Assembly (NCBI GenBank): GCA_035261025.1 | Contig: DATFUG010000137.1 | Coordinates: 1-36,161, forward strand | Reading direction: 5' to 3' | Length of the DNA: 36,161 nucleotides | Origin: Steroidobacteraceae bacterium | Lineage (GTDB): Bacteria > Pseudomonadota > Gammaproteobacteria > Steroidobacterales > Steroidobacteraceae | Part shown: positions 746-27,054 of the stretch, in pieces | Layout: each line of letters begins with the position of its first letter | How positions within the stretch are numbered: position 1 is the stretch's first letter | The notes under the pieces: generated by a model | What the model saw: the letters and a program-made list of their open reading frames with translations, nothing else | The model's database searches: none | Told to the model about the DNA's origin: nothing | Program-made: the position numbers and the translations under genes

Positions 746-757
746 GTAAACGTTTTC
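746..757. promoter_or_regulatory. LacI-family operator-like site GTAAACGTTTTC in the ATPase/GH1 divergent intergenic region
   Basis: 11 of 12 positions match the perfect palindrome GAAAACGTTTTC at 14629-14640, and the sequence is identical to the site at 14651-14662. It has the central CG and AAACG/CGTTT half-sites typical of LacI/GalR operators, and lies 39 nt upstream of the GH1 GTG start. Confidence 0.55.
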
Positions 758-795: not shown

Positions 796-2202
796 GTGAA
801 CGACAAGCTCTTGCGGTTTCCGGCCGGCTTTCTCTGGGGCACTGCCACTTCCGCTTATCAGATCGAGGGATCGCCGCTGGCCGATGGTGCCGGGCCCTCC
901 ATCTGGCAGCGATTCTGCCGCACGCCCGGGCTGGTGCGCGACGGCCAGAGCGGCGATGTGGCCTGCGACCATTACCGGCGCTACCAGAGCGACGTTGCGC
1001 TGATGCGCGAGCTCGGCCTCAAGGCCTACCGCTTCAGCATCTCCTGGAGCCGCGTGCTGCCTGCGGGCCGCGGCGCCGTCAACGCTGCGGGTCTCGGCTT
1101 CTACGATCGCCTCGTCGATGAACTTTTGGGCCACGGCATCGAGCCACTGGTGACACTGCATCACTGGGACCTGCCGGCCGCCCTCGATGATCGCGGCGGA
1201 TGGCTCAATCCCGACATCGCGCAGTGGTTTGCCGACTACGCCTCCGTTGTTTTCCGCAAGCTCGACGGGCGCGTGAAGCACTGGGTGACACACAATGAAC
1301 CCTGGGTGATCGCGGACGGCGGGTACCTGCACGGCGTGCTCGCGCCGGGGCATCGCAACGTCTACGAGGCGCCGATCGCGACGCATAACCTGCTGCGCGC
1401 CCATGGCGCCGCGGTGCAGGCCTATCGCGCCACGGGCAAGCATCGCATCGGACTGGTCGTCAATCTCGAGCCGAAGTACGGCGCGACGCCGGCAGAGGAG
1501 GACCGTGCCGCCACGGCGCGCGCCGATGCCTACATGAACCGCCAGTATCTCGACCCGGTCTTCCTGGGAAAATATCCCGAGGAGCTGCGCGAGATCTTCG
1601 GCGAAGCCTGGCCGACGTGGCCCGCGGCCGATCTGGAACTGATTCGCCAGCCGCTCGATTTCCTGGGCGTCAACTACTACACGCGCAATGTCACGCGCGC
1701 CAACGCGCAGAGCTGGCCGCTGCGCGCGGAAATGGTGCGCCAGACGCAGGCGACCTACACGGAGACCGGCTGGGAAGTCTTCCCGCAGGGCCTGACCGAT
1801 ACGCTGCTGTGGGTGAAGAACCGCTACGGCAATCCGCCCGTCTTCGTGACGGAGAACGGCGCGGCCTTCTTCGACCCGGCGGCGCCGGAGCAGGGCCGGA
1901 TCGATGATCCACTGCGCGTGGAATATCTTCGCGAGCATATTGCCGCGGTGCGCGCCGCCATCGCACAGGGTGCGGACGTGCGCGGCTATTTCGTCTGGTC
2001 GCTGCTCGATAACTTCGAGTGGGCACTCGGCTATTCAAAGCGCTTCGGCATCGTGCATGTCGATTACTCGACGCAGCAGCGCACGCCCAAGGCGAGCGCC
2101 CGCTACTACTCCAGCGTCATTGCGACGCACGGCGCCGCGGCCGAAAAGGCCGAGACGGGAACGCGGAGCGCAGCCGCGCCGACGCTCCTCACCGCGAGTT
2201 GA
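796..2202 (+). CDS. GH1 beta-glucosidase
   Basis: This is the in-frame 3' part of track ORF 286..2202, trimmed to GTG at 796. The upstream part is antisense to the ABC ATPase. N-terminus is VNDKLLRFPAGFLWGTATSAYQIEG, with the acid/base motif THNEPW and the nucleophile motif VTENGAAF. Confidence 0.9.
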   Translation: MNDKLLRFPAGFLWGTATSAYQIEGSPLADGAGPSIWQRFCRTPGLVRDGQSGDVACDHYRRYQSDVALMRELGLKAYRFSISWSRVLPAGRGAVNAAGLGFYDRLVDELLGHGIEPLVTLHHWDLPAALDDRGGWLNPDIAQWFADYASVVFRKLDGRVKHWVTHNEPWVIADGGYLHGVLAPGHRNVYEAPIATHNLLRAHGAAVQAYRATGKHRIGLVVNLEPKYGATPAEEDRAATARADAYMNRQYLDPVFLGKYPEELREIFGEAWPTWPAADLELIRQPLDFLGVNYYTRNVTRANAQSWPLRAEMVRQTQATYTETGWEVFPQGLTDTLLWVKNRYGNPPVFVTENGAAFFDPAAPEQGRIDDPLRVEYLREHIAAVRAAIAQGADVRGYFVWSLLDNFEWALGYSKRFGIVHVDYSTQQRTPKASARYYSSVIATHGAAAEKAETGTRSAAAPTLLTAS

Positions 2203-3244
2203 ACGGCCTTCCGGCCGGTGCTCCGGGCGCGGCCGGCCGCTCGGCGAGCATGACCTGCACGAGCTTCGCCATCATCTGCTCGATCTGCGCCGGCGTCATC
2301 TCGCCGAGCACGCCACGCCCTTCCGGTGCAATGTGCAGCGCCGGATCGCCGTGGGCATGAAATACGAAATGCTCGAAGTGGGCACGCCAGATATTGCGCT
2401 GCTCGGCCGGTAGCGTGGCGATGGCCAGTATGGCGTGCATGAGGCTGGTATAGGGCGGCCCGTCGGAGCGTGGCAACCCGTTCCACCAGTAATTGACGAG
2501 GATATTGAAAGGCGCCAGCGACTGCACGCCGTGCCACCACATGTAGGGAATGTAGAGGGCATCACCCGGCTCGAGCTCCGCCGTCTGCGCCGCCGCGTAG
2601 GCCAGCTCAAACTTCGGAAAGCGCGCCAGATCGGGGTGGGCGATGTCGACCAGGCTGATGGGCACGCCTTGCGGAGTGGAGTGCAGGGGGCCGACGTACA
2701 GGTTTTCCAGCTGCTCGGGCGGAAACAGCACGAAGCGGCGCCGGCCCGCCGCCACGCAGGCAATATTGTCCTTGCAGTCATAGTGGGCCGCGACCGTGCT
2801 GGTATTGCCAATCCAGATAGTCGGGCGCGTACCGGCGGGAGGGAGACCCAGGCTGTTGTGAATCTCCAGCTCCGGCAAGTGCTTCGGTATGGACAAGGCC
2901 TGGATGGACAGGGCCGGCGGCTCGGCCTGCTCCGCGCTGGCCAGCATCAGACGCAGCACGTCGGCAAACTTCGCCCGCACGCGGGTGAAGTTCTCACCGG
3001 TCATGTTCCCGTTGTAGGAAAAGCGGCCCTGGATCTGCGGTTCGCCCGCCAGATACTCCACCTGGGTCCCCGCATTGAGCACCTGCAGGTAATCGACGGC
3101 CGCCGCGGCGGATTCCATCCCCTTGCGCACCAGCGGCCAATCGGCGACCAGGCCTTTCAATACCGCTGGCTTGCGGGCGACGGCAATCTCGGATTCAAAG
3201 ACCCGCTGATCCACGTTTCGCCACTGGGGAATCTCCGCTGCCAT
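2189..3244 (-). CDS. Cupin-like / JmjC-domain (cupin_8) protein, putative Fe(II)/2-oxoglutarate oxygenase
   Basis: Track ORF of 351 aa. It has WIGNTSTVAAHYDCKDN (an HxD motif), RRFVLFPP and GDALYIPYMWWHGVQS (distal His), the pattern of JmjC/cupin_8 proteins. It is the last gene of the compact minus-strand operon, starting 3 nt after the stop of the upstream gene. Confidence 0.7.
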   Translation of the reverse strand: MAAEIPQWRNVDQRVFESEIAVARKPAVLKGLVADWPLVRKGMESAAAAVDYLQVLNAGTQVEYLAGEPQIQGRFSYNGNMTGENFTRVRAKFADVLRLMLASAEQAEPPALSIQALSIPKHLPELEIHNSLGLPPAGTRPTIWIGNTSTVAAHYDCKDNIACVAAGRRRFVLFPPEQLENLYVGPLHSTPQGVPISLVDIAHPDLARFPKFELAYAAAQTAELEPGDALYIPYMWWHGVQSLAPFNILVNYWWNGLPRSDGPPYTSLMHAILAIATLPAEQRNIWRAHFEHFVFHAHGDPALHIAPEGRGVLGEMTPAQIEQMMAKLVQVMLAERPAAPGAPAGRPFNSR

Positions 3245-3247
3245 GCA

Positions 3248-4387
3248 CTAATTTCTCACGGAGCCAGGGCCGCCAACCGGCGCAAGCCTTGGGATGCGGT
3301 CCGCGACGGGCGGCAGCGCCGGAAACGGCGCGTGCGGCTCCGTCTGGTACCAGTAGGCGACCGAGTAGAAATTGTCGGAGCGGTGATTGGCGTGGCCGTG
3401 TTCAATCGTAGCCCGGAACGATTTCGTGAACGGGATGGGGGAATCGAGATGAAAGCGATAGACAGTCGAACGGCTGCCCGTCTGCTCATCGCCTTTGACG
3501 GGGGCGCCGTACAGCGGATATGAGAAAGAGTGCGTGCCAAAGCCCCAGGCACCGAGGAAATAGTCCTCGGCACCGGTGCCATTGATGACGGGCAGGGTGC
3601 TGCCGTCAACGAAGAACATGTCGTCGCCCTCGCCCCACCAGCCATCCTGATTCTGCAGCACGGAGAGGGTGACGCCGACAAAGTGGCCGCGGCCGCGGGC
3701 TTCCATCCACACGTAGTTGCCCTCGCCGGAAAGATTGCTGCGAGTGTTCACGAGCGGCTCGCCATTGGCGCTCCAGCTGGACGTCCAGCCGTGGTTTGGT
3801 GCCGCCTGGCGATACTGCGCGTGAAAATACAGCGTGTCGGCGGGCAGCGGCCGCATGCAGACGCGATAGTCAATGTTGAAGTACAGGGCATCCACGCCTG
3901 CCGCGCCCTCGTTGGTGACGGTGATGCGGGCGTGCTTTCGAAACGGCATGGGGAAAAATGAGTTCAGGGCCTTCTCGGGGGCCACGGCCAGCGGCGCGGA
4001 CTGGTACAGGAAATACTCACCGAGCCCCAGGCCGAAAAAATCGCCGATTGGCGCTTCGACGCTGGGCGTCGCCTCGGCGTCCCAGTAGATTCGAAGCACC
4101 AGCTTCTTGAGGTGAAACTCCTCGCGGCTCGAGATCGTAAACCATAGATGGGAAATGACGCCGGGCCCGGCAGCGTCCAGCAGCGTCAGGGTCTCGCCGG
4201 GACGGACCGGACGGGCATCGTCGTTGGCACCGGCACGATCGTAGCTCGAGGCGCGATGCTGTACATAGTCGTGCGGACGCGTAAGGCCGGCGAGCGAGCC
4301 CGCGGCATCGAGACAGCCCTGCGCCTGGGTGGCCTGGATGCCGGAGAAGAGTAGCAGCGGGCCCAGCGATGCGAGGCGTGCGATCAT
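3248..4387 (-). CDS. DUF2961 / GH172-like secreted glycoside hydrolase-like protein
   Basis: Track ORF 3248..4582 trimmed to ATG 4385-4387, which gives the signal peptide MIARLASLGPLLLFSGIQATQAQG. The start overlaps the upstream permease stop as ATGA. GPGVISHLWFT and the C-terminal SVAYWYQTEP resemble DUF2961 family members as I remember them. Confidence 0.65.
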   Translation of the reverse strand: MIARLASLGPLLLFSGIQATQAQGCLDAAGSLAGLTRPHDYVQHRASSYDRAGANDDARPVRPGETLTLLDAAGPGVISHLWFTISSREEFHLKKLVLRIYWDAEATPSVEAPIGDFFGLGLGEYFLYQSAPLAVAPEKALNSFFPMPFRKHARITVTNEGAAGVDALYFNIDYRVCMRPLPADTLYFHAQYRQAAPNHGWTSSWSANGEPLVNTRSNLSGEGNYVWMEARGRGHFVGVTLSVLQNQDGWWGEGDDMFFVDGSTLPVINGTGAEDYFLGAWGFGTHSFSYPLYGAPVKGDEQTGSRSTVYRFHLDSPIPFTKSFRATIEHGHANHRSDNFYSVAYWYQTEPHAPFPALPPVADRIPRLAPVGGPGSVRN

Positions 4388-5205
4388 CCCTTGACGCTCC
4401 CCAGTGTAATGCCCCGGAGGTAGAAGCGTTGCAGGGACAGGAACAGCGCCAGCACCGGCAGCACCGTGATGACGGCTCCGGCCATCATCATCTCGTTGTC
4501 CTGCACGTGTTCGCGCGCCAGGCCGGCCAGCGCCACCGGCAGGGTCTGCATGTCGCGGTCGCTGAGCACGATCAGCGGCCACATGAAATCATTCCAGGTG
4601 CCCAGGAATACGAAGATACCGAGCGTGACCAGGATCGGCGTGAGCACCGGCAGCACCACGGAGCGGAAGATGCGCCATTCGCCGGCACCGTCGATGCGCG
4701 CCGCGTCCAGCAATTCATCGGGAATCGACAGCGCGTACTGGCGCACCAGGAAGATGCCGAAGATGCTGGCGATGCCGGGCACGATCGCGCCGGCGTAGCT
4801 GTTGACGAGGCCCAGAAACTTGAGCAGTCCGAACAGCGGGATCATCGTCACCTGGCCCGGCACCAGCAGGCCCGCGAGCAGCAGCCGGTAGACCGACTCG
4901 CGGCCGCGGAAGCGCAGCTTCGCGAAGGCGTAGCCGGCCATGCCATTGAACACCAGCGCGAGCAGCGTGGCGCTGGTGGCCACGATCACGCTGTTGATGA
5001 AATACCGGCCCATGTGCTGGCCCGCGAACAGATCGCGGTAGTGATCGAGCGTGAGCGAACTCGGCAGTAGCGGTGGCGGATAAGTCGACGAGGCGCCGGT
5101 CGGCATGAGCGAAACGGAGACCATCCACGCCAGCGGGAACACGGTCAGCGCAGCGGCCAGCCACAGGGCGGCGTTGACCAGCCAGGCCTGCGCACGCGGG
5201 TTCAT
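4384..5205 (-). CDS. Carbohydrate ABC transporter permease (MalG-like)
   Basis: Track ORF 4384..5487 trimmed to ATG 5203-5205 (MNPRAQAWLVNAALWLAAALTVFPLAWMV). It has the EAA-loop-like DAARIDGAGEWRIFRSVVLP and multiple hydrophobic spans. The start forms an ATGA overlap with the upstream permease stop. Confidence 0.85.
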   Translation of the reverse strand: MNPRAQAWLVNAALWLAAALTVFPLAWMVSVSLMPTGASSTYPPPLLPSSLTLDHYRDLFAGQHMGRYFINSVIVATSATLLALVFNGMAGYAFAKLRFRGRESVYRLLLAGLLVPGQVTMIPLFGLLKFLGLVNSYAGAIVPGIASIFGIFLVRQYALSIPDELLDAARIDGAGEWRIFRSVVLPVLTPILVTLGIFVFLGTWNDFMWPLIVLSDRDMQTLPVALAGLAREHVQDNEMMMAGAVITVLPVLALFLSLQRFYLRGITLGSVKG

Positions 5206-6080
5206 GTCTCGCCCAGCCGCCGGGTGAGGCGCAGCTGCAGCGCCGTGATCAGCAGGATCAGCGCAAACAGGACGAAGGCCACGCTGGAGGCAGAACCCAG
5301 TTTCCACCAGGTGAAGCCCTGATCGAACATGAAGTACAGCACGCTGAGCGTGCTTTGCAGCGGCCCTCCCTGGGTCATCACGTAGGGCTCGGCGAACAGC
5401 TGGAAATAGCCGCTGACCGTGAGGATGCCGACCAGCGCCAGCGTCGGGGTGAGAAGCGGCAGCGTGATGTGGCGCAATCGCGCCCACGCCCCGGCGCCTT
5501 CAAGGCGCGCGGCGTCGTACAGATCCTCGGGAATGGCCTGCAGCGCGGCGATCAGGATGATCATGTTGTAGCCGAAATTCTTCCACACCGCGAGCAGCAC
5601 AATGGAGGGCATCGACCAGTGCGGATCGCCGAGCCAGTCGATGGCCGGCAATCCCAGATGAGTCAGCAGGTAGTTGATCAATCCGTAGCGCGTGTGCAGC
5701 AGATAGCGCCAGATCAGCGCCACGGCCACCAGCGACGTGACGACTGGAGCGAACAACGCCGTGCGGAACAGGGGCCGGAAGCGGGCCAGGCGTGAATCGA
5801 CCAGCAGCGCGGCGCCGAGCGATGCCAGGAGCGAGAGGGGCACACCCAGCACCACGAAAAAGGCGGTATTGCCGAGCGCCTGCCAGAACAGCGGCGTCAC
5901 CAGCAGCGTGCGGTAGTTGTCGAGCCCGATGTAGCGCAGGTTGGCAGGATCGGCCAGCGCATACAGATCGAAATCGGTGAAGCTCAGCAGCAGGGCCGCC
6001 ACGACCGGCAGCAGAAAAAAGACGCCGATCAGCAGCAGGGCCGGGAGCGAGAACCACCAGCCGGCGCGTGTGCGGTTCAT
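5202..6080 (-). CDS. Carbohydrate ABC transporter permease (MalF-like)
   Basis: Track ORF of 292 aa: MNRTRAGWWFSLPALLLIGVFFLLPVV, with the EAA-loop YDAARLEGAGAWARLRHITLP. The start forms an ATGA overlap with the stop of the binding-protein gene. Confidence 0.85.
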   Translation of the reverse strand: MNRTRAGWWFSLPALLLIGVFFLLPVVAALLLSFTDFDLYALADPANLRYIGLDNYRTLLVTPLFWQALGNTAFFVVLGVPLSLLASLGAALLVDSRLARFRPLFRTALFAPVVTSLVAVALIWRYLLHTRYGLINYLLTHLGLPAIDWLGDPHWSMPSIVLLAVWKNFGYNMIILIAALQAIPEDLYDAARLEGAGAWARLRHITLPLLTPTLALVGILTVSGYFQLFAEPYVMTQGGPLQSTLSVLYFMFDQGFTWWKLGSASSVAFVLFALILLITALQLRLTRRLGET

Positions 6081-7360
6081 CGCTTTTCCTGCCGGTCGAG
6101 CAGCCAGCGCCGCTTGGCGAGCATCGCATCCACCTCGGCGTCAAACTGGGTGACGGCGGCATCTTCGCTCTGCCCGCCACGCACGACACGCTCGGCCATC
6201 AATCGCATGCCCTGCATGATCTGCTCCCACTCGGGCAGCTGCTGGAAGGTGCGGAGCCGATCGAGCTGGATGCGGAAGGCTCGCGTGTAGGGATCGGTGG
6301 CGATGGCGCCGGATTCCCAGCTGCTGCGCCGCGGCGGCAGATCGCCCGTAATCTCGTAGAAGCGACGTTGCACCTCGGGGCGCGAGAGGTATTCGATCAG
6401 GGCCCAGGCGCTGGCCTTGTGCTCAGAGCGCCGGAAGATCACCAGGCTGGAACCGCCGGCGCTGGAGGCGCCGGGTCCGTCCGGGCCGGGCATCGGCGCG
6501 GTCATCCAGCTGCCCTGCTGCCCGGCCGGCAGGCGGCGCTTGAATTCACCGATATTCCAGGGTCCGGAGACATAGAACGAGAAGAATCCATTGCCCAACT
6601 CATCCCAGACGTTGGAAATCTGGGTGTTGGTCGCCATCGGCGCGAGCGACTGCGTGAACAACTGGTGGTAAAAGGCCAGCGCGCGCCGGAAGGAAGGGCT
6701 GCGAAAATTGCCGTAGCGATTGCCCTCCCGCAGCATGGCTTCCGGCTGCTGCAGGGCCAGGACCTGGAGCGGCTCGAATTCATTGAGCGGCAGCAGCACC
6801 GCGTAGCGCTGCGGCCCCACCATCCGCTTGATGGCCTGGAGCTGGCGCAGCCAGTCGGCCCAGTTGTCCGCCGGACCGGCAAATCCAGCCTGGCGCAGCA
6901 GATCGCTGCGGTAGAACAGCAAGCGGGTGTCGACGTACCAGGGCACGCCCCACGGCACGCCGCCGAGCGAATTGGCCTGCCAGACCTGGGGGAAAAAATC
7001 CGCGACCTCCACGATCTTCGATGCGGCGAGGCGCGACTGCAGCGGCTCCAGCGCATGCAGGGCGACGAGCTCGGGTATCCAGGTGTTGCCGAGCTGGCAC
7101 ATGTCGGGAGTGGCGTCGCCGGCCACGGCGGTGAGGAACTTCTCGTGCGCCGCCGTCAGGGCGAGGCGCTGCACCTCGACGTGCAGGCCCGGGTGTTCGC
7201 GCTCGAAGGCCGGCAACAGCGCACTCACCTGGTCCGCCTCGGCGCCAAAAGCCCAGAACTTCAGCACTTCGCCCTGCGGGGCGCCGCCACAGCCGCTTGC
7301 CACCAGGGCCGCCAGTAGCGGCGCGAGCCGGCCCGCGCGCGGGCTGTTCAGCCCAGCCAT
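6077..7360 (-). CDS. Extracellular sugar-binding protein (ABC family 1 SBP), lipoprotein-type signal
   Basis: Track ORF 6077..7966 trimmed to ATG 7358-7360: MAGLNSPRAGRLAPLLAALVASGCGG. The body has SBP_bac_1-like segments (VPWYVDTRLLFYRSDLL). The start overlaps the upstream GH144-like gene by 13 nt. Confidence 0.8.
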   Translation of the reverse strand: MAGLNSPRAGRLAPLLAALVASGCGGAPQGEVLKFWAFGAEADQVSALLPAFEREHPGLHVEVQRLALTAAHEKFLTAVAGDATPDMCQLGNTWIPELVALHALEPLQSRLAASKIVEVADFFPQVWQANSLGGVPWGVPWYVDTRLLFYRSDLLRQAGFAGPADNWADWLRQLQAIKRMVGPQRYAVLLPLNEFEPLQVLALQQPEAMLREGNRYGNFRSPSFRRALAFYHQLFTQSLAPMATNTQISNVWDELGNGFFSFYVSGPWNIGEFKRRLPAGQQGSWMTAPMPGPDGPGASSAGGSSLVIFRRSEHKASAWALIEYLSRPEVQRRFYEITGDLPPRRSSWESGAIATDPYTRAFRIQLDRLRTFQQLPEWEQIMQGMRLMAERVVRGGQSEDAAVTQFDAEVDAMLAKRRWLLDRQEKR

Positions 7361-8802
7361 CCGCCGCTGAATCCGGCGCGCTGCAGACCCCGGCGGATCA
7401 CCGGGTCGCGCTGCATCGTCTGCCAGAGCAGTCCACTGTGCTGGTTCTCCAGCATCGTCATGAGCGGTCCGTGCGTGATGCCGTAGTAACGCGAGTCGAC
7501 CCAGCCCAGCTCGCCCACCCGCCGCCCGCTCAGGAGCGGCACGTCGAACTGGAAACTCGGGTTGAAACTGTCGAGGAAGCCGTATTGTCCATAGATCACC
7601 GCGCCGTAGCGGCGATACATCTCGGCGGCGGCGGCCGTGGCCTGATCGGGCGTGAAGGGCAGGCACCCCAGGGCCGCGCTCGGCGTGATCGTGCCGTCGT
7701 CCAGGTTCTGGTCCGGATTCAGGCCGACGCCGCGGCCGGCATAGGTGCGGAACTGCCGTTGCACGCCCTGGTAGGAAAGGCTGCCCGTGTAGGGACCGTC
7801 GCAGGCGCTCAGGCCCCACACGTCGGGCCCGTAGCCCGCCCAGCCCAGGGGATTGGCCGTCGCGTAGGCGCGCTGCGAGAGCGCCGCGCGCCGGGTGTTC
7901 TCGAAGTAATCGATGCCGCGGGCGCGCAGGTACGCATCGCTCACCCCGCGCAGGTCCACCCAGCACTGCGTAAAGTGGTGACCAAAGAGCGGTCCAAAGG
8001 TGAGATGCTCGATGCCCTCGATCCTGCCCCAGCTCGCGTCATACCCGGAGGTCCAGACGGCCCAGGCATCCGTCCCGACGGCGTGCGCCTGTGAGCCCAG
8101 GGCCAGCAGGTAGACCGGGATCGCCTCGTTGTAGCCGATCCAGTCCGCGGACAGGAATCCGGTTTCCGGCCGCCAGCCCATGCAGACGCCCGGGCCGTTG
8201 GCCTGGGCCCAGTTCCACTCGACGCGCTCGCACAAGGCGTCCGCGATCGTACGGATCGCCACCTCGTCGACATCCGTGCCGTCGAAATACTGGCCGCAGA
8301 GGCGCGCACCCATCAGCAGCAGCGTCGTGTCGACGGTCGAGAGCTCCGAGTCGCGGTAACGCGTACCGCTGCTCATGTCGAGGAAGTGATAGAAAAAGCC
8401 GCGATAGCCGGTGCAACCGGTCGGGGCCGTCCCCTGCGGCGCATCGCGCAGGAACTCCAGCCAGCCCCGCACCCGTTGCGCGGCGGCGGCTCGCGGCACC
8501 CAGCCGTGCGCGACGCCGATGGGCACCGCGCTGAAGGCGAAGCCCATGGCCGCGATGCTGGCCGGCGCCGGGTCCGGCCAATAATCGGGCGCCAGCCCGC
8601 GCGCCGCCTCCGTGGTCTGCCAGAAATAATTGAAGCTGCGATGCAGGCTGTCCGCCAGCAGCGCGTCGGGGGTCAGCGGGGGCGGCGGGGGATAGCCGGC
8701 GGCGGGGACCGCCGGCGTCGAGCTCCCGCCGCAACCGACCAGGGCGCCGGCCGCCGTGGTCGCGGCCACCTGCAGGAAGCGGCGTCGCGTCAGCCGCGCC
8801 AT
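7348..8802 (-). CDS. Glucoamylase-like / GH144-like protein (putative endo-beta-1,2-glucanase family), Tat signal plus lipobox
   Basis: Track ORF of 484 aa. N-terminus MARLTRRRFLQVAATTAAGALVGCGG has a twin-arginine motif and an LVGC lipobox. FNYFWQTT..., SIAAMGFAFSAV and GFFYHFLDMSSGTR resemble the DUF3131/glycoamylase (GH144) family as I remember it. Confidence 0.6.
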   Translation of the reverse strand: MARLTRRRFLQVAATTAAGALVGCGGSSTPAVPAAGYPPPPPLTPDALLADSLHRSFNYFWQTTEAARGLAPDYWPDPAPASIAAMGFAFSAVPIGVAHGWVPRAAAAQRVRGWLEFLRDAPQGTAPTGCTGYRGFFYHFLDMSSGTRYRDSELSTVDTTLLLMGARLCGQYFDGTDVDEVAIRTIADALCERVEWNWAQANGPGVCMGWRPETGFLSADWIGYNEAIPVYLLALGSQAHAVGTDAWAVWTSGYDASWGRIEGIEHLTFGPLFGHHFTQCWVDLRGVSDAYLRARGIDYFENTRRAALSQRAYATANPLGWAGYGPDVWGLSACDGPYTGSLSYQGVQRQFRTYAGRGVGLNPDQNLDDGTITPSAALGCLPFTPDQATAAAAEMYRRYGAVIYGQYGFLDSFNPSFQFDVPLLSGRRVGELGWVDSRYYGITHGPLMTMLENQHSGLLWQTMQRDPVIRRGLQRAGFSGGWLG

Positions 8803-8803
8803 A

Positions 8804-10306
8804 TCAGACTGCCGCGGCCTTGCAGTGCCGGTCGATGAACTGCTGATGCATCGGCATCGCGTCGACGCAGTTGGCCACGATCATCTTGGCGTGGTCCATG
8901 AAGGTATAGAGATCGGCATCGCTCATCTGGTCAACCATCGGGTGATATCCGGCCGGCATGATGTGCTGTCCGATCATCACCTCCACCCAGCTCACCTGAC
9001 CAAACATTTCCTCCGCATTGCGAAAGAACCGGCCACTGTCCCTGAACAGCCGCACGGTGTCGGTGAGCGTCTCCGGTACGGGCATCGTCCGGCAGTAATT
9101 CCAGAACGGCGAGTCGTCGCGCTCGGTCGCGTGGTAGTGCATGATCAGGAAATCCCGGATCCGCTCGAATTCGAAGGTGCATTGCGCGTTGTAGCGGTCA
9201 ACGAGGACCTGGCTGATCTCACCGCCCGGAAACAGCAGCACCAGCTTGCCGATCGCCGATTGGATCAGGTAGATGCTGGTCGACTCCAGCGGCTCCATGA
9301 AGCCGCCGGCGAGGCCGACCGCCACGACGTTCCTGTTCCAGATCTTCCGGCGCTTGCCGGTCGTGAAGCGCAGCGGCCGGGGCTCAGCGAGGGCGCGCCC
9401 GTCGAGATTCCTGAGCAGGATGGCCGCGGCCTCGTCCTCGCTCATGAACTTGCTGCAGTACACGTGGCCGTTGCCGGTGCGATGCTGCAGCGGGATGCGC
9501 CATTGCCACCCGGCCGTGCGCGCGGTCGAGCGCGTATAGGGCGTCGGCGGACCGACCTTCTCGCAGGGCACCGCCAGCGCCCGGTCGCAGGGCAGCCAGT
9601 GGGTCCAGTCCTCGTAACCGGTATGCAATGCCTCCTCGATCAGCAGGCCGCGAAAACCGGAGCAATCGATGAACAGATCGCCACTGACGGCCTCGCCGCT
9701 CTCGAGCACCACGGCTTCGACGTAGCCATCGGTGGCGCGCAACCGGGTCTCGCGGATCTTGCCCTCGGTGCGCACCACGCCGCGCGCCTCGGCGTAGCGG
9801 CGCAGGTAGCGCGCGTACAGCCCGGCGTCGAAGTGGTAGGCATAGGCGACGTCGGCCAACGGCGAATTCTTCGGTGCGTCGCTGGCCGAGACCATGAATT
9901 TCTCGCGCGGCGCTGCCACCGTGTTGAGCGAGTAGTCGCCGAGTTCGGCCGCCCGGCCCGCCAGGCGGGCGCGCAGCCAGTAATGGTGGAACGGTATCGA
10001 GCCCAGGTCGTGTCCCAGGGTGCCAAAGCCGTGGATGTAGGTATCCCCGATGCGCCCCCAATCCCTGAACTGGATACCCAGCTTGAAGGTGCCCTGGGTC
10101 TGCCGGATGAATTCGGCCTCGTCGATCTCCAGCATCTTGTTGAAGTGGGACAGGTGCGGCACGGTCGCTTCGCCGACACCGACGATACCGATCTCCTCGG
10201 ATTCGACCAGGCGCAGCGCGTAGGTCTTGCCGAAAGTCTTGGCGAGCGCACAGGCGGCCATCCAGCCGGCGGTACCGCCCCCTACGATGACGATGTTCTT
10301 GATCAA
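8804..10306 (-). CDS. Flavin-dependent (tryptophan-type) halogenase family protein
   Basis: Track ORF 8804..10333. Motifs are IVIVGGGTAGW (GxGxxG), VGVGEATVPHL, GTFKLGIQF (conserved Lys), GWQWRIPL (WxWxIP) and GFMEPLESTSI (conserved Glu). The track start is a TTG at 10331-10333 inside the U-tract of the upstream terminator. I prefer the next in-frame TTG at 10304-10306, but the start is uncertain by 27 nt. Confidence 0.8.
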   Translation of the reverse strand: MIKNIVIVGGGTAGWMAACALAKTFGKTYALRLVESEEIGIVGVGEATVPHLSHFNKMLEIDEAEFIRQTQGTFKLGIQFRDWGRIGDTYIHGFGTLGHDLGSIPFHHYWLRARLAGRAAELGDYSLNTVAAPREKFMVSASDAPKNSPLADVAYAYHFDAGLYARYLRRYAEARGVVRTEGKIRETRLRATDGYVEAVVLESGEAVSGDLFIDCSGFRGLLIEEALHTGYEDWTHWLPCDRALAVPCEKVGPPTPYTRSTARTAGWQWRIPLQHRTGNGHVYCSKFMSEDEAAAILLRNLDGRALAEPRPLRFTTGKRRKIWNRNVVAVGLAGGFMEPLESTSIYLIQSAIGKLVLLFPGGEISQVLVDRYNAQCTFEFERIRDFLIMHYHATERDDSPFWNYCRTMPVPETLTDTVRLFRDSGRFFRNAEEMFGQVSWVEVMIGQHIMPAGYHPMVDQMSDADLYTFMDHAKMIVANCVDAMPMHQQFIDRHCKAAAV

Positions 10307-10323
10307 CCTGTTGGACCTGCACG

Positions 10324-10353
10324 AAAAAAACAAAGCCCGCAGGGCGGGCTTTG
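10324..10353 (-). terminator. Rho-independent terminator downstream of the TonB-dependent receptor gene
   Basis: Arms 10331-10340 (caaagcccgc) and 10344-10353 (gcgggctttg) form a 10-bp GC-rich stem with a 3-nt loop. On the minus strand the stem is followed by seven U (10324-10330). It sits about 50 nt after the TBDR stop. Confidence 0.8.
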
Positions 10354-10404
10354 TCGTATCGCCATTGCTGACGCCAAGTGTACTCCCCGGTGCTTAAACC
10401 CGGA

Positions 10405-13400
10405 TCACCACTTGAAGCCCACCGTCATCTTCAGCGTCCTCGTCACGCCAATGATCGGCCCGCTGGTGTTGTACGCCGGTTGATTTGGATAATTGTACGA
10501 GGCCGCCGTTGAGTCAAAGTTCTGCGCGTTGAGGAGGTTGAGCACATCCAGGCGCACGTAACCACTCATGTTCTGGGGCAGATCGAAGCTTTTCGTCACC
10601 TGCATGTCCACGCTCTGGTAACCAAACAGGACATTGCCGACGGCGTCCGCGACCGGATAGGCGTTGGTCCCGAAGGCATTGCAGGAGGTCCCATTGGCGA
10701 AGCCCAGCTGGCTACACCCGGCAATCGTGGTCACGGGAATCGGCGTCGCCAGCGTCAGCTTGCCGGCAAACAACAGGCCCCATGGACCATCGACGCTGCC
10801 CGTGGCGACCATCCTGTGCCTGGCCACCGCACTCGAGAGCGTGAAGGGGTAGTCCGCGATGTGCGGCAGGTCGAAGCCATAGCCGTCCGTAAACAGGCGG
10901 TTCTGCTTCGCGTCGGTGAAGGTATAAGCAAACGTTGCACCCCAATGCGATTCACGCGTATAGGGCTTCTCCGCAGAGACCAGGAGTTCGGTCGTGCGCG
11001 TCTCCTGACCGTTCTCCCACAGCACGAGGTTGCTCTGCAGGCCCGGCAGGCCGGCGGAGCACCACTGCGCGGGTGAGCCGCCCCAGTCCAGGCCGCAGCC
11101 GCGCGTGGCAAAGCTGCCGTCGGCGTAGCGGTTGCCCAATACGCCCAGCAACCCTTCGTAGCTGTTGATGCGCGTCAGCGTGACGCTGGTGTTCCAGTCG
11201 CCGACCTTGTTGCGTATGCCAAGGCTGAACTGGTCTGAATAGGGCACCTTCAGATTGTTCGGGAACATGTTCGCTTCGCCGCCGGGAGCGCCCAGTCCCT
11301 GCAGATTGGCCGCGTTCAGGTACATGGGATTCCAGTCCAGGCAGGTTGTCCCGTTCGCGTCGCCAGGCGGCAGCGCGGCCGGCCCGCCAGGCACGATGCA
11401 GTTGTTGTAACTGTATTTGCCACCCGTGAAGTTGATCGTCGGCTCCGACAGGGCGTTCTTCGAATTCTCGAGCTGCAGCTTGTCGAACAGATTGCGGTCA
11501 TAGGCGCGGCCCACACCGCCGAACACCACGTGCTTCTCATCGGCGTTGATGTCGTACGAGAATCCCAGGCGCGGCGCGACCTCGCCGGCGGGCGTCTTGC
11601 GATTGCTCCCGGTGCTGATGTAATCGTTGATGTTGATGCCGCCAAGCGCCAGCGCGTCAGCATAGGTCTCGCCCGGCGTCGGCCGGGGCAACTGCAGGGC
11701 TGGATTCGCGTTGACGCCCGGATCCGGATACGGCTGCTGGAGCGCCGTGAGGATCCGATCGAGCGTCTTGTAGTTCTCGAACGACGGCGTGACTTCGTAG
11801 TCATAGCGGATACCGAGGTTCAGCGTCAGGTGCTGGTTGACCGCCCAGTCGTCCTGGAAGTAAATGCCAATCTGCTTGTTGTCCGACTTCGAGGTCAGCG
11901 GCAGGCCGAAGCTGGCCTTGCCAAACACCACCTGGAACGGGGTCGCCTGTGTGCCGCTCGCATCGACCGCGTACCAGTACTTGGCTGCTTCGGACCCGTC
12001 GCGCGCGACGAGCTGCACGCCCTTGTACTTGACGCCCATCTTCAGCGTGTGCTCGCCCATCCAGTGCAGGTTGCTGAACGTCAGGTCGTCCTGGATGCCC
12101 CAGCCGTCCTGGTGCTTGTCGGTGTACTGGCGCGGATCCGCACCGTTGATGGTGATGATGTCCTGGCGGAACTGACCGGCGTTGCCAAAGTAGGTGTAGG
12201 TGATCCCGGGATTGCCGTTGAGCGGCGTCGGGAGGTCGACGGTTTTTTCGTAGAGGGCCATCATTTCATTGACCCAGCGATCGCTGCTGTGCTGCCAGCG
12301 CAGATTCACGCGGGTGTCTTCGTTCTTGAAGTTGAAGCCCGCCGACACCGCCACGTTGCCGGACCCGCCCTGGACTTCGGTCTCACGGCGCAGCTTGGTG
12401 CTCAGCTCGATGCGGTCGCTATCGCTCGGTTCCCAGTCGACCTTGGCGAAATAGAGATTTTCCTTGAACGGGGTCGCGCTCGGACCAAACTGCTCAAACA
12501 CACCCGCGGGCAACAGGGTGGCCAGCGGTATGCCGGCGAGGCTCCCATCGGGATTGACGGTGGTCGGCAGCGTGAAGTCCTTGTGCTCCCAGGTGACGAA
12601 ATAATGCATCGCATCCATGATGATCGGGCCGCCGACGGCCAGACCGTACTCGGTATTCGCGGACTTGACCTTGGCACCCCCGGCGGCGTCTTCGGACGGC
12701 GTGGCGGCACGCAGCGACTCGTTGGTGTAGTCGCCGAACAGCTCGCCGTGGAGGGTATTCGTGCCCGACTTCGTCTGCGCCGTGATCGCGGCGCTGGAGA
12801 TCTGGTCGTATTCCGCCTTGTAGTTCGAGGTGATGACCTTGTACTCACCGATGGCGAGCTGGGGGAAGGGGTTGCCAGGATCGCCATTCCCGTTCGGACC
12901 GGCCTGGCCGGAGATGCCACCCGTCTTGACGTAGTTCTTCTGGCCCACGCCGTCGATGAACACGTTGATGGCGCTGTTGGCCTGCGCACCGCTCTGGATC
13001 GAGGTGTTGCCCCGCGTGTCGACGCTGAACACCATGCCCGGCACGGTATCGGCGAACTCCAGGAAGTTGCGCGTGATCTGCGGGGTGGTCTCGATTTGAT
13101 GCAGCGACACGGTCGAGCCAATTTCAGAGGTCTTGACCTCAACCAGGCGTGTCGCCCGGACGATGATCTCCTCCAGCGTACCGGTCGCTTCCACCCCGCC
13201 CGCGCCCAGATCGAGGGTCGCCGTGGATGCGACGCTCAGCGTCACGGTCTGTTCAGTGCCTGGACCGGCATCGACGCGGTAGGTGCCCGAGGGCAGGCCG
13301 GCCAGGGCGTAGGTGCCATCGGCACCCGCCGTGGTGCGGCGCGTGGCGCCCGTGGCGATATTCTTCGCCGTGATCTGGCTGTTGGCGGCGGCCGTTCCGC

Positions 13401-13521
13401 GCAGGGTGGCATCGGCCGTCTGTGACCAGACGATCGACGGGACGAAGGCGGTCGACGCCAGCGCCGTCGCAAACACCGATCCGTACACTTTCTTCTTGCT
13501 GTTGCGATACCGCTTCTTCAT
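10405..13521 (-). CDS. TonB-dependent receptor with N-terminal carboxypeptidase-regulatory-like domain (Oar-like TBDT)
   Basis: Track ORF of 1038 aa with a signal peptide. DGTYALAGLPSGTYRV matches a CarboxypepD_reg-like fold, LEEIIVRATR is TonB-box/plug-like, and a long beta-barrel follows, ending in an aromatic residue (GFKW). A strong SD (GGAAGGA) lies 4 nt before the ATG. Confidence 0.9.
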   Translation of the reverse strand: MKKRYRNSKKKVYGSVFATALASTAFVPSIVWSQTADATLRGTAAANSQITAKNIATGATRRTTAGADGTYALAGLPSGTYRVDAGPGTEQTVTLSVASTATLDLGAGGVEATGTLEEIIVRATRLVEVKTSEIGSTVSLHQIETTPQITRNFLEFADTVPGMVFSVDTRGNTSIQSGAQANSAINVFIDGVGQKNYVKTGGISGQAGPNGNGDPGNPFPQLAIGEYKVITSNYKAEYDQISSAAITAQTKSGTNTLHGELFGDYTNESLRAATPSEDAAGGAKVKSANTEYGLAVGGPIIMDAMHYFVTWEHKDFTLPTTVNPDGSLAGIPLATLLPAGVFEQFGPSATPFKENLYFAKVDWEPSDSDRIELSTKLRRETEVQGGSGNVAVSAGFNFKNEDTRVNLRWQHSSDRWVNEMMALYEKTVDLPTPLNGNPGITYTYFGNAGQFRQDIITINGADPRQYTDKHQDGWGIQDDLTFSNLHWMGEHTLKMGVKYKGVQLVARDGSEAAKYWYAVDASGTQATPFQVVFGKASFGLPLTSKSDNKQIGIYFQDDWAVNQHLTLNLGIRYDYEVTPSFENYKTLDRILTALQQPYPDPGVNANPALQLPRPTPGETYADALALGGININDYISTGSNRKTPAGEVAPRLGFSYDINADEKHVVFGGVGRAYDRNLFDKLQLENSKNALSEPTINFTGGKYSYNNCIVPGGPAALPPGDANGTTCLDWNPMYLNAANLQGLGAPGGEANMFPNNLKVPYSDQFSLGIRNKVGDWNTSVTLTRINSYEGLLGVLGNRYADGSFATRGCGLDWGGSPAQWCSAGLPGLQSNLVLWENGQETRTTELLVSAEKPYTRESHWGATFAYTFTDAKQNRLFTDGYGFDLPHIADYPFTLSSAVARHRMVATGSVDGPWGLLFAGKLTLATPIPVTTIAGCSQLGFANGTSCNAFGTNAYPVADAVGNVLFGYQSVDMQVTKSFDLPQNMSGYVRLDVLNLLNAQNFDSTAASYNYPNQPAYNTSGPIIGVTRTLKMTVGFKW

Positions 13522-13563: not shown

Positions 13564-14583
13564 CTAGGCGCGTGTGAGTGCAGTCTTCGTCGCGGCGCCG
13601 CAGGAAGCGCGTACGACAAGTTGGGTTCCGAGCGTGTGCGTTGCGCGGCTGACGCTGCCGGGCGCGTCGATCGCGCGCGCCAGTTCATCCAGCGACTGGC
13701 GACCGAGTTCCGTGGTCTGGGCCCGCACGGTCGTCAGTGGCGGCGTGACGAATCGCGCGATCGGTATGTCGTCGAATCCGCCGAGCGCGATGTCCTCCGG
13801 AACACGAATACCGGCCTCCGTGAGCGCGAACAGGCAGCCGATGGCCATCACGTCGTTGGCGGCGAAGACGGCGTCCGGGCGCGGCGCAGCCTGCGCCAGC
13901 TGCCGCCCTGCGAGATAGCCGGATTCCTCGGTAAACGCACCCGGCAGCACCAGGGCCTTGGCGGCCCGGACCGGCCCCAGCGCCGCGCGAAAGCCGCGCA
14001 GCCGCTCCGCCGATTCATAGTTGCCTTCCGGTCCGGTGATGTGTGCGATGTTCATGTGACCCAGACCACGCAGGTGCTCGACCATCGCCTTGGCGCCGCC
14101 GAAATCGTCGATCATGAAGGCGGGTGCACGGGCTGCATTGTCCGGGGTGTTGAGCAGCACCGTCGGGAGAGTCGCGGGCAGAGCATTGCCCAGCAGCTGT
14201 GCGTCGACGTAAGGCGACATGATCAGCACGCCGTCGACCCGGCCGTTCATGGCGCGCAACGCCAAAGAGGCCTCTTCGGCATCGCCATGGGAGCTCGATA
14301 CCAGCAGGTGCAGTCCCCTGAGGCGGGCGGCCCGATCGATGCCCCGGATCAGCTCTGAAAAGTACTCGCCGTAGATGTCGGGCAGGAGCACGCCGATGGT
14401 ATTGGTGCGTCTTGTGATCAAACTGCGCGCCACACCATGTGGCGTATAACGCAGTTGCCGTGCGGCGCGTTCCACGCGCAGGCGTGTCTTTTCGGTGACA
14501 ACGCCCGTGCCATGCAGGGCCCGGGACACGGAGGCGATGGAGACCCTGGCACGCAATGCCACGTCCTTGATGGTCACCGCCAT
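13564..14583 (-). CDS. LacI-family transcriptional repressor
   Basis: Track ORF 13564..14595 begins at a GTG. I prefer ATG 14581-14583, which is preceded by GGGAGG. The HTH is MAVTIKDVALRARVSIASVSRALHG, followed by a periplasmic-binding-protein-like sugar-binding core. Confidence 0.9.
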   Translation of the reverse strand: MAVTIKDVALRARVSIASVSRALHGTGVVTEKTRLRVERAARQLRYTPHGVARSLITRRTNTIGVLLPDIYGEYFSELIRGIDRAARLRGLHLLVSSSHGDAEEASLALRAMNGRVDGVLIMSPYVDAQLLGNALPATLPTVLLNTPDNAARAPAFMIDDFGGAKAMVEHLRGLGHMNIAHITGPEGNYESAERLRGFRAALGPVRAAKALVLPGAFTEESGYLAGRQLAQAAPRPDAVFAANDVMAIGCLFALTEAGIRVPEDIALGGFDDIPIARFVTPPLTTVRAQTTELGRQSLDELARAIDAPGSVSRATHTLGTQLVVRASCGAATKTALTRA

Positions 14584-14610
14584 CCCCCCTCCCACGGTAC
14601 CCCTACTCCA

Positions 14611-14632
14611 ATTATTAGAAAATTATTAGAAA
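14611..14632. repeat. Tandem 11-bp AT-rich direct repeat (attattagaaa x2) in the lacI leader
   Basis: Read directly: attattagaaa at 14611-14621 and again at 14622-14632. The second copy overlaps the first operator. The AT-richness is striking in this GC-rich background. Confidence 0.8.
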
Positions 14633-14640
14633 ACGTTTTC
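14629..14640. promoter_or_regulatory. LacI-type operator O1, perfect 12-bp palindrome GAAAACGTTTTC
   Basis: Read directly; the sequence is its own reverse complement. It lies in the leader, 46 nt upstream of the lacI ATG. Confidence 0.7.
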
Positions 14641-14650
14641 CGGTGTGCTG

Positions 14651-14662
14651 GTAAACGTTTTC
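14651..14662. promoter_or_regulatory. LacI-type operator O2, GTAAACGTTTTC
   Basis: 11 of 12 match to O1 and identical to the 746-757 site. Centre-to-centre distance to O1 is 22 bp. It sits immediately downstream of the predicted -10 element. Confidence 0.65.
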
Positions 14663-14665
14663 TGG

Positions 14666-14695
14666 ATTCTAGATACAAGCACGCAAAGCTGTCAA
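14666..14695 (-). promoter_or_regulatory. Sigma70-type promoter for the lacI-TBDR transcription unit
   Basis: On the minus strand, -35 is TTGACA (14690-14695) and -10 is TAGAAT (14666-14671), separated by an 18-nt spacer. The predicted start falls within or next to operator O2. Confidence 0.6.
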
Positions 14696-16405: not shown

Positions 16406-16428
16406 GATGGGGTGCCTCCAGAGAGGGT

Positions 16429-16938
16429 TCACGGTTTGATGCAGGCGGTGGCGCAGATGGCGTGGGCGACGTAGCCGGCAGCCGTGACAAAAGCCCGGCC
16501 CGCCTGGTCCATCCGCGCCGTTTGGGGATCTATGCCTTCCGAGATGATGCCGCCGTCCCAGGGACTGGCCAGCAGGATGCCGAGCGCGCGCTCATGTGAG
16601 CGCTTGAGCAGCAATTCGTCGGCCAGCATCCACGAAGTCGTGAACGGGAGGCGATAGCTCCCGGGCAGACCGTAGGGACTGCCGGCATAGGAATAGGGAT
16701 AGGCCGGCGGGTGCAGCCAATCGTAGGTGCGGGCGAACAGGGGATCGGTCTCGGCAATGGACTGCAGGGAGGGCAGTTTCATCAGCGAGCCGGGTGGAAT
16801 CTCGGTCTCGACGTAATGCCCGCCGTCCGTGGCGATGACATCATCGGGCCGCAACGCCAGAGGCGTGCGGTGCGGCGCACCGGCGGCATGGGCAGCCGCG
16901 TGACTCAGACCCATCAACAGAAGAAACTTCCAGCGCAT
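16429..16938 (-). CDS. Small secreted hypothetical protein (169 aa)
   Basis: Track ORF 16429..17001 trimmed to ATG 16936-16938, giving the signal peptide MRWKFLLLMGLSHAAAHA. It ends 23 nt before the GH39 start on the same strand. I could not place it securely in a family; see the findings. Confidence 0.5.
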   Translation of the reverse strand: MRWKFLLLMGLSHAAAHAAGAPHRTPLALRPDDVIATDGGHYVETEIPPGSLMKLPSLQSIAETDPLFARTYDWLHPPAYPYSYAGSPYGLPGSYRLPFTTSWMLADELLLKRSHERALGILLASPWDGGIISEGIDPQTARMDQAGRAFVTAAGYVAHAICATACIKP

Positions 16939-16981
16939 GAAATCCACTATTCTTCGCCCTCGGCAATTATGGCAGCTCGGA

Positions 16982-17003
16982 TTTTCATTGCGCGTTTTCA
17001 TTG
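16982..17003. repeat. Direct repeat ttttcattg (x2, 13-bp period) in the divergent intergenic region between the small ORF/GH39 and GH31
   Basis: Read directly: ttttcattg at 16982-16990 and at 16995-17003. The span tcattgcgcgttttca (16985-17000) contains one CGTTTTCA half-site resembling the LacI operators. Confidence 0.6.
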
Positions 17004-17027
17004 ACCCACTGGATTCGGGGGACAGCG

Positions 17028-22865: not shown

Positions 22866-22939
22866 CGGTGACTCCCGACGGTTGAAGGGTAACTTTCGCA
22901 AAAATCATGCGCCGGCGGGGTATGGGATGCAATGTGCAT

Positions 22940-24370: not shown

Positions 24371-24412
24371 CTGGGCGAGTTTATGCTCTGTTAAGATCCA
24401 AGGGAGACAGAA

Positions 24413-27043: not shown

Positions 27044-27054
27044 CCGGCGCAACC

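Follow-up and report, generated by a model that had tools for sequence, protein, structure and literature searches.

Here we describe a predicted flavin-dependent halogenase that is encoded within a glycan-uptake operon of a Steroidobacteraceae bacterium (GenBank assembly GCA_035261025.1, contig DATFUG010000137.1, positions 1 to 36,161 of the forward strand; this whole stretch of 36,161 nucleotides is hereafter called the window). The halogenase gene follows a gene for a TonB-dependent receptor (TBDR) and precedes one for a glycoside hydrolase of family 144 (GH144). An original prediction, made from the DNA letters and their translations, took this arrangement to argue for a role in glycan or glycoside acquisition rather than in secondary metabolism.

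Gene content of the locus

The features of the operon and of its regulon, as annotated from sequence, are the following.

14666..14695, minus strand: sigma-70-like promoter (TTGACA, 18 nt, TAGAAT; 11/12 consensus positions), upstream of the LacI gene
14651-14662 (GTAAACGTTTTC) and 14629-14640 (GAAAACGTTTTC), either strand: two LacI-type palindromic operators just downstream of the -10 box
13564..14595, minus strand: LacI-family regulator (Pfam LacI + Peripla_BP_3), 42 nt upstream of the receptor gene
10405..13521, minus strand: TonB-dependent receptor of 1038 aa with a Sec signal (CarboxypepD_reg + OMP_b-brl_4 + TonB_dep_Rec; Oar-like, not TIGR01782)
10329..10355, minus strand: intrinsic-terminator-like hairpin, GACAAAGCCCGC-CCT-GCGGGCTTTGTT + T7 (12-bp stem, 7 G-C pairs)
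8804..10306, minus strand: flavin-dependent halogenase of 500 aa, predicted cytoplasmic (G9xG11xxG14, K75, W267xW269xI271P272, E338PLE341)
7348..8802, minus strand: GH144 endo-beta-1,2-glucanase lipoprotein (Pfam PF10091; Tat motif RRRF + lipobox LVGC)
6077..7360, minus strand: solute-binding lipoprotein (SBP) of an ATP-binding cassette (ABC) importer, probably for sophoro-oligosaccharides (SBP_bac_1)
5202-6080 and 4384-5205, minus strand: two ABC permeases (BPD_transp_1) with ATGA overlaps
3248..4387, minus strand: DUF2961 protein (Pfam) with a signal peptide, a lineage-specific addition
2189..3244, minus strand: Cupin_8/JmjC-type hydroxylase (HYD...H; Pfam E 4e-65), predicted cytoplasmic, last gene of the operon
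796..2202, plus strand: GH1 beta-glucosidase (Pfam E 1e-163), predicted cytoplasmic, same LacI regulon
746..757, either strand: third LacI operator, in the intergenic region of the divergently oriented MalK-type ATPase and GH1 genes
1-687, minus strand: MalK-type ATPase (Pfam)

Genes were called with a suffix-score caller tuned to high G+C, which reproduced the known genes of the window; it shortened the GH15 gene and some start codons, so that intergenic gap statistics are rough. An NCBIfam scan gave no family for the halogenase, GH144, cupin or DUF2961 proteins, and Rfam and tRNA scans of the window returned no matches.

Identity of the halogenase

The original prediction had taken the gene as the open reading frame (ORF) at 8804-10333 on the minus strand. 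Its translation does contain the motifs quoted there (GGGTAGW, GTFKLGIQF, GWQWRIPL and EPLESTSI), but the start is probably TTG 10306 (500 aa) rather than TTG 10333, because the database holds an identical protein of 500 aa and relatives measure 500-506 aa, while TTG 10333 falls inside the T-tract of the hairpin. Pfam family PF04820 (Trp_halogenase) matched the protein over its full length, scoring 670.9 bits where the curated cut-off is 21 (E 1.2e-201), and the match spans positions 1-457 of the 458 in the profile. The N-terminus goes directly into the Rossmann fold without a signal peptide, and the G+C content at third codon positions (GC3) of 0.87 is typical of coding sequence.

All four halogenase motifs that had been proposed are present and stand in register with PyrH (2WET) in a phmmer alignment, in which the halogenase lysine lies opposite PyrH K75, GWQWRIPL opposite GWMWTIPL, and EPLESTS opposite EPLESTG. 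The GxGxxG motif is G9-G-G11-T-A-G14 at the N-terminus, the WxWxIP motif is W267-Q-W269-R-I271-P272, and the catalytic lysine (PrnA K79 / PyrH K75) and glutamate (PrnA E346) are both found, as K75 and within E338-P-L-E341. We aligned 84 TBDR-linked homologues with identities of 30-100% (77 genome loci and 7 plasmid records), among which K75, E338, E341, W267, W269 and I271 are invariant; GxGxxG is kept in all 78 homologues with that region called. Because these residues are invariant, the protein is read as an intact halogenase-type enzyme and not a decayed relic. An aromatic platform is likewise kept (Y90 in 84/84, H92 in 84/84, F94 in 83/84, F435 in 84/84 and W440 in 81/84), although the homologues come from loci for differing glycans.

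The tryptophan-specific part of the pocket differs. Where true tryptophan halogenases have the backbone-binding YYHG, the window enzyme has AEEMFG; of the PyrH segment 'yyhgfetysw', aligned to 'aeemfgqvsw', F435, S439 and W440 alone are retained. In the same alignment, the motifs by which tryptophan halogenases hold the amino and carboxyl groups of their substrate (Trp3/Trp4, YYHG[LF]..YS), as defined together with the table of group C motifs in PMC8269204, are absent from the window halogenase. What is said here on fold and pocket is based on the PyrH alignment and on solved structures 48-49% identical to the window protein; a structure model from a 12-sequence alignment (mean predicted local distance difference test score, pLDDT, 50.2; predicted template modelling score, pTM, 0.47) was left unused for them.

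Relationship to known halogenases

The solved structures closest to the window protein are 9LUQ (48% identity) and Xcc4156/6Y1W (49%), both over the full length, followed by BrvH/6FRL at E 1e-145; PyrH, PrnA and RebH rank next, at E about 1e-84. Xcc4156 (PDB 6Y1W), Xcc-b100_1333/_4345 of Xanthomonas campestris B100 and BrvH (PDB 6FRL) of Brevundimonas BAL3 belong to the same length class of ~500 aa as the window enzyme and have the GxGxxG / K / WxWxIP / EPLES set in common with it. Group C is marked by the motifs ATxPxI and HxFG, and the ATVPHL and HGFGT of the window protein match the ATVPHI and HGFGT listed for Xcc-b100_4345. Xanthomonas orthologues, which are 67% identical to the window protein and also lie behind TBDR genes, carry exactly ATVPHI and HGFGT; their gene ends a LacI-TBDR-TBDR-Hal unit (Hal, halogenase) with no GH144 within 10 kb, whereas the window gene lies inside a beta-1,2-glucan operon. 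By these motifs and identities, the window halogenase is assigned to the BrvH/Xcc4156 clade of group C, described as 'open-site, indole-type'. PrnA, RebH and PyrH have the same fold family, cofactor motifs and catalytic lysine and glutamate, yet are only ~30-35% identical to the window enzyme, which has shorter substrate-binding loops, is without a YYHG-type motif and lies outside any biosynthetic gene cluster.

BrvH and the Xcc enzymes, which were investigated as biocatalysts, brominate indole and not tryptophan in vitro; their active sites are open, no native substrate is known for them, and peptides have been proposed as substrates of Xcc4156 and BrvH (PMC7336383, PMC5945002). The gene-cluster analysis of BrvH recorded just a second halogenase gene upstream (PMC5945002), and the biocatalysis text on the Xcc enzymes makes no mention of a TonB-dependent receptor (PMC7336383). 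Halogenating activity, demonstrated only in the relatives BrvH and the Xcc enzymes, is predicted for the window protein by analogy.

Operon structure and regulation

The halogenase gene is the first of seven genes in a row (Hal, GH144, SBP, two permeases, DUF2961 and the JmjC cupin), and all neighbours from Hal to Cupin_8 either overlap or lie no more than 3 nt apart. As had been proposed, the halogenase stop codon (TGA, 8806-8804) lies 1 nt from the GH144 start codon (ATG 8802), and an ABC sugar importer follows, with the SBP and two permeases after GH144 and the MalK-type ATPase at 1-687. From this spacing, the seven-gene run is predicted to be translationally coupled.

LacI palindromes occur three times in the window against an expectation of 0.37. 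The halogenase is assigned on this basis to a sugar-responsive LacI regulon, since a single LacI promoter with two operators stands before the operon and a third operator lies before GH1/MalK. The three palindromes (GAAAACGTTTTC / GTAAACGTTTTC) delimit a small regulon, consisting of the lacI-TBDR-Hal...cupin operon and the divergent GH1 and MalK genes.

The halogenase gene had been placed directly behind the receptor gene. It does lie downstream on the same strand, with the receptor gene ending 98 nt upstream of TTG 10306, but the strong terminator-like hairpin (10355-10329) stands between the two. Hairpins with a folding energy of -10 kcal/mol or lower, followed by a T-run of at least 4, are found between receptor and halogenase in 35/68 related loci; a few of these hairpins are weak, and the stems differ in sequence between lineages. 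Since hairpins recur at this one position with lineage-differing stems, we regard the hairpin as probably a selected attenuator that sets the expression ratio, with the receptor in excess.

The reading of the 10355-10329 hairpin as a chance match was rejected, given that T-run hairpins with different sequences recur there in about half of the related loci. Near-identical hairpins (CAAAGCCCGC-loop-GCGGGCTTTG + T-run) occupy the interval between receptor and halogenase in loci L002-L007, L009, L014, L017, L026 and L035, which come from several genera; other lineages carry unrelated hairpins at the same spot.

Predicted substrate of the uptake system

The window GH144 protein matches XCC2207 (XcSGL; PDB 8XUL) at E 4e-157, and XcSGL hydrolyses beta-1,2-glucan (PMC12102758). 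The window SBP matches 3UOR at E 9e-154 and Listeria Lin1841 (5YSB) at E 2e-54. The parts of a beta-1,2-glucan locus are all present, namely GH144, an SBP/ABC importer of the sophoro-oligosaccharide type and a beta-glucosidase. Many related loci likewise have GH1, and related loci additionally carry GH3, GH94, GH1 and the MalK ATPase. In the known beta-1,2-glucan systems (XcSGL/XCC2207, and the Listeria Lin1841 SBP with SOGP), the GH144 and SBP components are related to those of the window, with GH1, GH3 and GH94 as partners in related loci; the literature searched on XcSGL and Lin1841/SOGP does not mention a halogenase. On its gene content, therefore, the locus is one for the uptake of beta-1,2-glucan or sophoro-oligosaccharides. 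Judged by their N-termini, the receptor, GH144 (Tat motif and lipobox), SBP (lipobox) and DUF2961 proteins are exported, whereas the halogenase, cupin and GH1 proteins have no signal peptide.

Conservation among close relatives

A scan of one genome per species yielded 80 loci with halogenases 63-85% identical to that of the window, from Steroidobacteraceae, Rhodanobacter, Rudaea, Dyella, Luteibacter, Pseudoxanthomonas, Xanthomonas, Sphingomonas, Asticcacaulis and others. The gene immediately upstream of the halogenase is a same-strand TBDR in 71/76 loci (65 of the window type and 6 of another TBDR type), and in 3 of the remaining 5 the receptor lies a few genes farther upstream, beyond an extra GH144 or short doubtful ORFs. 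GH144 is found downstream on the same strand in 55/80, and in most related loci a LacI gene precedes the TBDR. The Hal-TBDR-GH144 linkage is not due to chance, because the same gene order (LacI-TBDR-Hal-GH144-SBP-permease-permease) recurs across many genera. The 1-nt spacing between Hal and GH144 is lineage-specific; the median gap, as measured with rough start calls, is ~100 nt.

The co-occurrence that had been suggested with TBDR and GH144 thus stands, but its JmjC component does not extend to these loci: Cupin_8/JmjC was not found in the 80 closest loci and is seen only in more distant members. Gene clustering over 81 loci gave a DUF2961 cluster of 2 members and a Cupin_8 cluster of 1 member. 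None of the other 80 closely related loci has DUF2961 or Cupin_8, which have therefore joined the operon in the window lineage only.

In loci L008, L068 and L081, a gene of the Na+/H+ exchanger family (PF00999) adjoins the halogenase gene or lies within two genes downstream of it, and could conceivably have to do with the handling of ions or halide.

The wider family and its constant partner

The halogenase family comprises 2559 clusters at 50% identity (E 1e-30 or better), and outside the GH144 loci its members accompany quite different glycan genes. Halogenases ~65% identical to that of the window lie behind a TIGR01782 (TonB-Xanth-Caul) receptor in loci L030, L036, L057, L068 and L081. These are alpha-glucan loci, with two alpha-amylases, GH31, a major facilitator superfamily (MFS) transporter, an esterase and a divergent DUF6445 gene, and their halogenases form a subclade of their own (77% identical within, 64% to others). 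Among more distant relatives, which are plasmid-borne halogenases (30-54% identity) and autonomous modules, a TBDR adjoins or is near the halogenase in all 9 contexts examined. It is accompanied by GH68, alpha-galactosidase and MFS genes in Sphingomonas and Hirschia, by GH95 in Asticcacaulis, by beta-galactosidase, SapC, SLC5 and alpha-galactosidase in Pseudoalteromonas, and by GH16, GH3 and GH43, or GH8 and GH3, in Sphingobium and Novosphingobium. We read these loci as serving alpha-glucan, sucrose/fructan, galactosides, fucosides and beta-1,3-glucan.

Two arrangements have no carbohydrate gene: a TBDR-SapC-cupin-Hal module in Sphingomonas parapaucimobilis and a TBDR-Hal-SapC-Cupin_8-Hal::DUF6445 module in Roseateles/Pelomonas, between ppc and hemCDXY. 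Because TBDRs persist across differing glycan loci and carbohydrate-free modules, the constant partner of the halogenase is the receptor (together with dioxygenases and SapC) and not the glycan. Of the 8 module TBDRs typed, 7 are TIGR01782, whereas the window receptor is Oar-like (CarboxypepD_reg + OMP_b-brl_4), and no siderophore-receptor model reached its curated cut-off on the TBDRs typed. The window cupin shares 37-42% identity with its counterparts in TBDR-SapC-cupin-halogenase modules, and its nearest solved relatives are FIH (2e-20), JMJD5, JMJD7 and TYW5, which are protein or tRNA hydroxylases.

The Pelomonas/Roseateles fusions of Hal and DUF6445 lie at 9001-11241 of locus L089 and 9001-11247 of locus L090, in a module beside the haem synthesis genes hemC-hemD-hemX-hemY. 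The fusion is kept in all 120 best relatives of P0130 and, in the Rosetta-stone sense, ties the halogenase to a second predicted oxygenase. The candidacy of DUF6445 as an oxygenase of the 2-oxoglutarate (2OG) type rests on the description of a Syn9-gp52-like family by Iyer and a PHROG hit; a PDB sequence search with DUF6445 returned nothing significant.

Relationship to published neighbourhoods

The association itself is not new. The neighbourhood was published in 2010, when Iyer, Abhiman, de Souza and Aravind described JmjC genes with one to three Trp halogenases, a TonB-class receptor and SapC, sometimes with a second 2OG dioxygenase, in alpha- and gamma-proteobacteria, and predicted a halogenated, siderophore-like product (PMC2938197). 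The window is accordingly a clean new example of an old puzzle. Receptor, halogenase and Cupin_8/JmjC share one transcription unit in both, whereas the window has no SapC, no second halogenase, and an Oar-like receptor in place of TIGR01782, and has five uptake and degradation genes inserted between halogenase and cupin. SapC (PF07277) matched no called gene of the window, and the operon has no spare room for it. Our literature search, in line with what had been stated earlier, found no physiological role assigned to TBDR-linked halogenases, and neither Blanvillain 2007 nor the Shewanella sugar catalogue mentions halogenases in the main text.

Proposed function

Given the above, we propose that the halogenase is a catalytically competent, cytoplasmic two-component enzyme which serves as an accessory module of the TBDR and acts on an aromatic acceptor, not on the glycan. 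We assign this reading a probability of roughly 0.6. The window would represent a reduced form of an accessory module (TBDR and halogenase, with or without SapC, JmjC cupin and DUF6445) that has been built into a LacI-controlled beta-1,2-glucan operon. A beta-1,2-gluco-oligosaccharide would relieve LacI repression and lead to receptor in excess, and read-through of the terminator would give smaller amounts of the seven downstream products, namely the halogenase, GH144, the ABC components, DUF2961 and the JmjC hydroxylase. Using reduced flavin (FADH2) from a reductase encoded elsewhere, O2 and halide, the enzyme would generate a lysine-guided hypohalite species that halogenates an electron-rich ring positioned by the conserved His/Phe/Phe/Trp platform. 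This ring may belong to an indole- or phenol-type acceptor, free or in a peptide, which the JmjC enzyme probably hydroxylates as well. The analysis shows what kind of enzyme this is, that its catalytic residues are intact, how the operon is built and co-regulated, that the linkage to TBDRs is conserved and that the locus is one for beta-1,2-glucan; we infer that the downstream genes are expressed by read-through, that the acceptor is aromatic and that the cupin cooperates.

Flavin-dependent halogenases require electron-rich carbons. Direct action on the glycan is unlikely, because the enzyme has no signal peptide and the glycans offer no electron-rich aromatic carbon. A single, glycan-independent class of acceptor is suggested instead, because the platform is conserved across unrelated glycan loci and carbohydrate-free modules. 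The glycan-acquisition role that had been preferred over secondary metabolism is consequently retained in part: LacI co-regulation with glycan uptake and the lack of scaffold genes support it, but the coupling is to the TBDR, and carbohydrate-free modules exist. Similarly, Pfam scans of the called genes across the 36 kb found no nonribosomal peptide synthetase (NRPS), polyketide synthase (PKS) or flavin reductase, as had been stated, but the JmjC cupin (2189-3244) could be a tailoring enzyme.

Several points weigh against our proposal. A generic acceptor fails to explain why each receptor locus keeps a halogenase paralogue of its own, and the pocket residues were mapped through sequence homology to PyrH and PrnA, not through coordinates. 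The in vitro activity of clade members is very low (2.5 mU/mg for BrvH; PMC5945002), and halogenation may not be the physiological reaction. Finally, the terminator could be a sign that the halogenase run is transcribed from an unrecognised promoter of its own.

Alternative explanations

The first alternative is that the imported cargo provides the substrate, either as the aromatic aglycone of aryl beta-glucosides or sophorosides or as an enolisable sugar intermediate, in a catabolic or detoxifying step. The operon and LacI regulon shared with GH144, the ABC importer and GH1 would suit such a role, as would the adjacency of Hal and GH144 in 55/80 loci, and the way halogenase subclades follow locus type (alpha-glucan, 77% within and 64% to others) fits specialisation by cargo. 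However, the same family with the same platform occurs in alpha-glucan, sucrose/fructan, galactoside, fucoside and beta-1,3-glucan loci and in carbohydrate-free modules. Beta-1,2-glucan, maltodextrin and sucrose contain no aromatic group, and the chemistry of the family requires electron-rich carbons; we thus consider this explanation unlikely.

We also see little chance for the proposal of Iyer et al., in which halogenase, JmjC, 2OG dioxygenase and SapC make a halogenated and hydroxylated, amino-acid-derived, siderophore-like metabolite that is secreted and recaptured by the TBDR. It can draw on the published neighbourhood and its interpretation (PMC2938197), on the intact catalytic residues of the halogenase, and on autonomous modules that combine a TBDR with two halogenases, two oxygenase-type proteins and SapC and contain no carbohydrate genes. 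Nevertheless, neither the window nor the modules examined encode a scaffold enzyme (NRPS, PKS or ligase) or an exporter. The receptors point elsewhere as well, with 7/8 typed module TBDRs being TIGR01782 and that of the window Oar-like, and no siderophore-receptor model at its cut-off. The regulator of the window is of the LacI family with sugar-type operators, the genes nearby encode GH144, a sugar ABC system and GH1, and this LacI control and the carbohydrate enzymes contradict a siderophore-like interpretation.

Modification of a co-made protein is a further, improbable explanation, in which the halogenase and JmjC enzymes modify tryptophan (and asparagine, arginine or lysine) of, for example, the precursor of the receptor or some other part of the TonB-dependent uptake system. 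An open active site and the peptides suggested for Xcc4156/BrvH are compatible with it, as are the protein and tRNA hydroxylases nearest to the cupin; the receptor is the only gene always beside the enzymes, and one paralogue is retained per receptor locus. Set against this, the enzymes are cytoplasmic while the receptor is exported unfolded via Sec, and the halogenase subclade occurs with two receptor architectures that are unrelated to each other. Given the terminator, there should be far less enzyme than receptor, though this would be acceptable for a catalyst, and a halogenated protein of this kind is not known. A version in which the halogenase, the JmjC cupin and DUF6445 form a cytoplasmic system for tailoring proteins or peptides, which would halogenate a tryptophan and hydroxylate another residue of a ribosomally made protein tied to TonB-dependent uptake, with the receptor precursor or an unannotated small peptide as target, appears to us similarly doubtful. 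That the enzyme is a passenger, an inactive or non-halogenating flavoprotein retained through operon inertia, is very improbable: the low in vitro activity of clade members and the lack of a reported phenotype in the literature searched would agree with it, but the catalytic residues never vary among 84 sequences with identities as low as 30%, GC3 is 0.87, the family has 2559 clusters, and the DUF6445 fusions are stable.

Significance

Halogenase genes lie behind TBDRs in thousands of proteobacterial genomes, and the operon described here is a clean test case for them, with a single LacI promoter bearing clear operators and with halogenase and JmjC hydroxylase in one coupled unit. The substrate class (beta-1,2-glucan/sophorose) is defined and commercially obtainable, and close orthologues occur in culturable Rhodanobacter, Luteibacter, Pseudoxanthomonas and Xanthomonas. 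Solving the role would provide native substrates for biocatalysts that have already been crystallised, and could reveal an accessory step in TonB-dependent nutrient uptake. Should protein tailoring prove true, it would be a case of enzymatic protein halogenation for nutrient acquisition and not for antibiotic synthesis.

Flanking regions

A carbohydrate island at 14864-25243, with GH39, GH31 and GH15 genes and a gene for a DsbA-like thioredoxin, flanks the operon. In this glycoside-hydrolase-rich region, an ORF of 942 aa (19517-22345, minus strand) has the unusual architecture of an N-terminal Trypsin_2 serine protease and a C-terminal TonB_C domain. At 25589-28254, genes resembling ChsH2-type and thiolase genes of steroid/lipid side-chain degradation are found, which fits Steroidobacteraceae metagenome-assembled genomes as the nearest named relatives.

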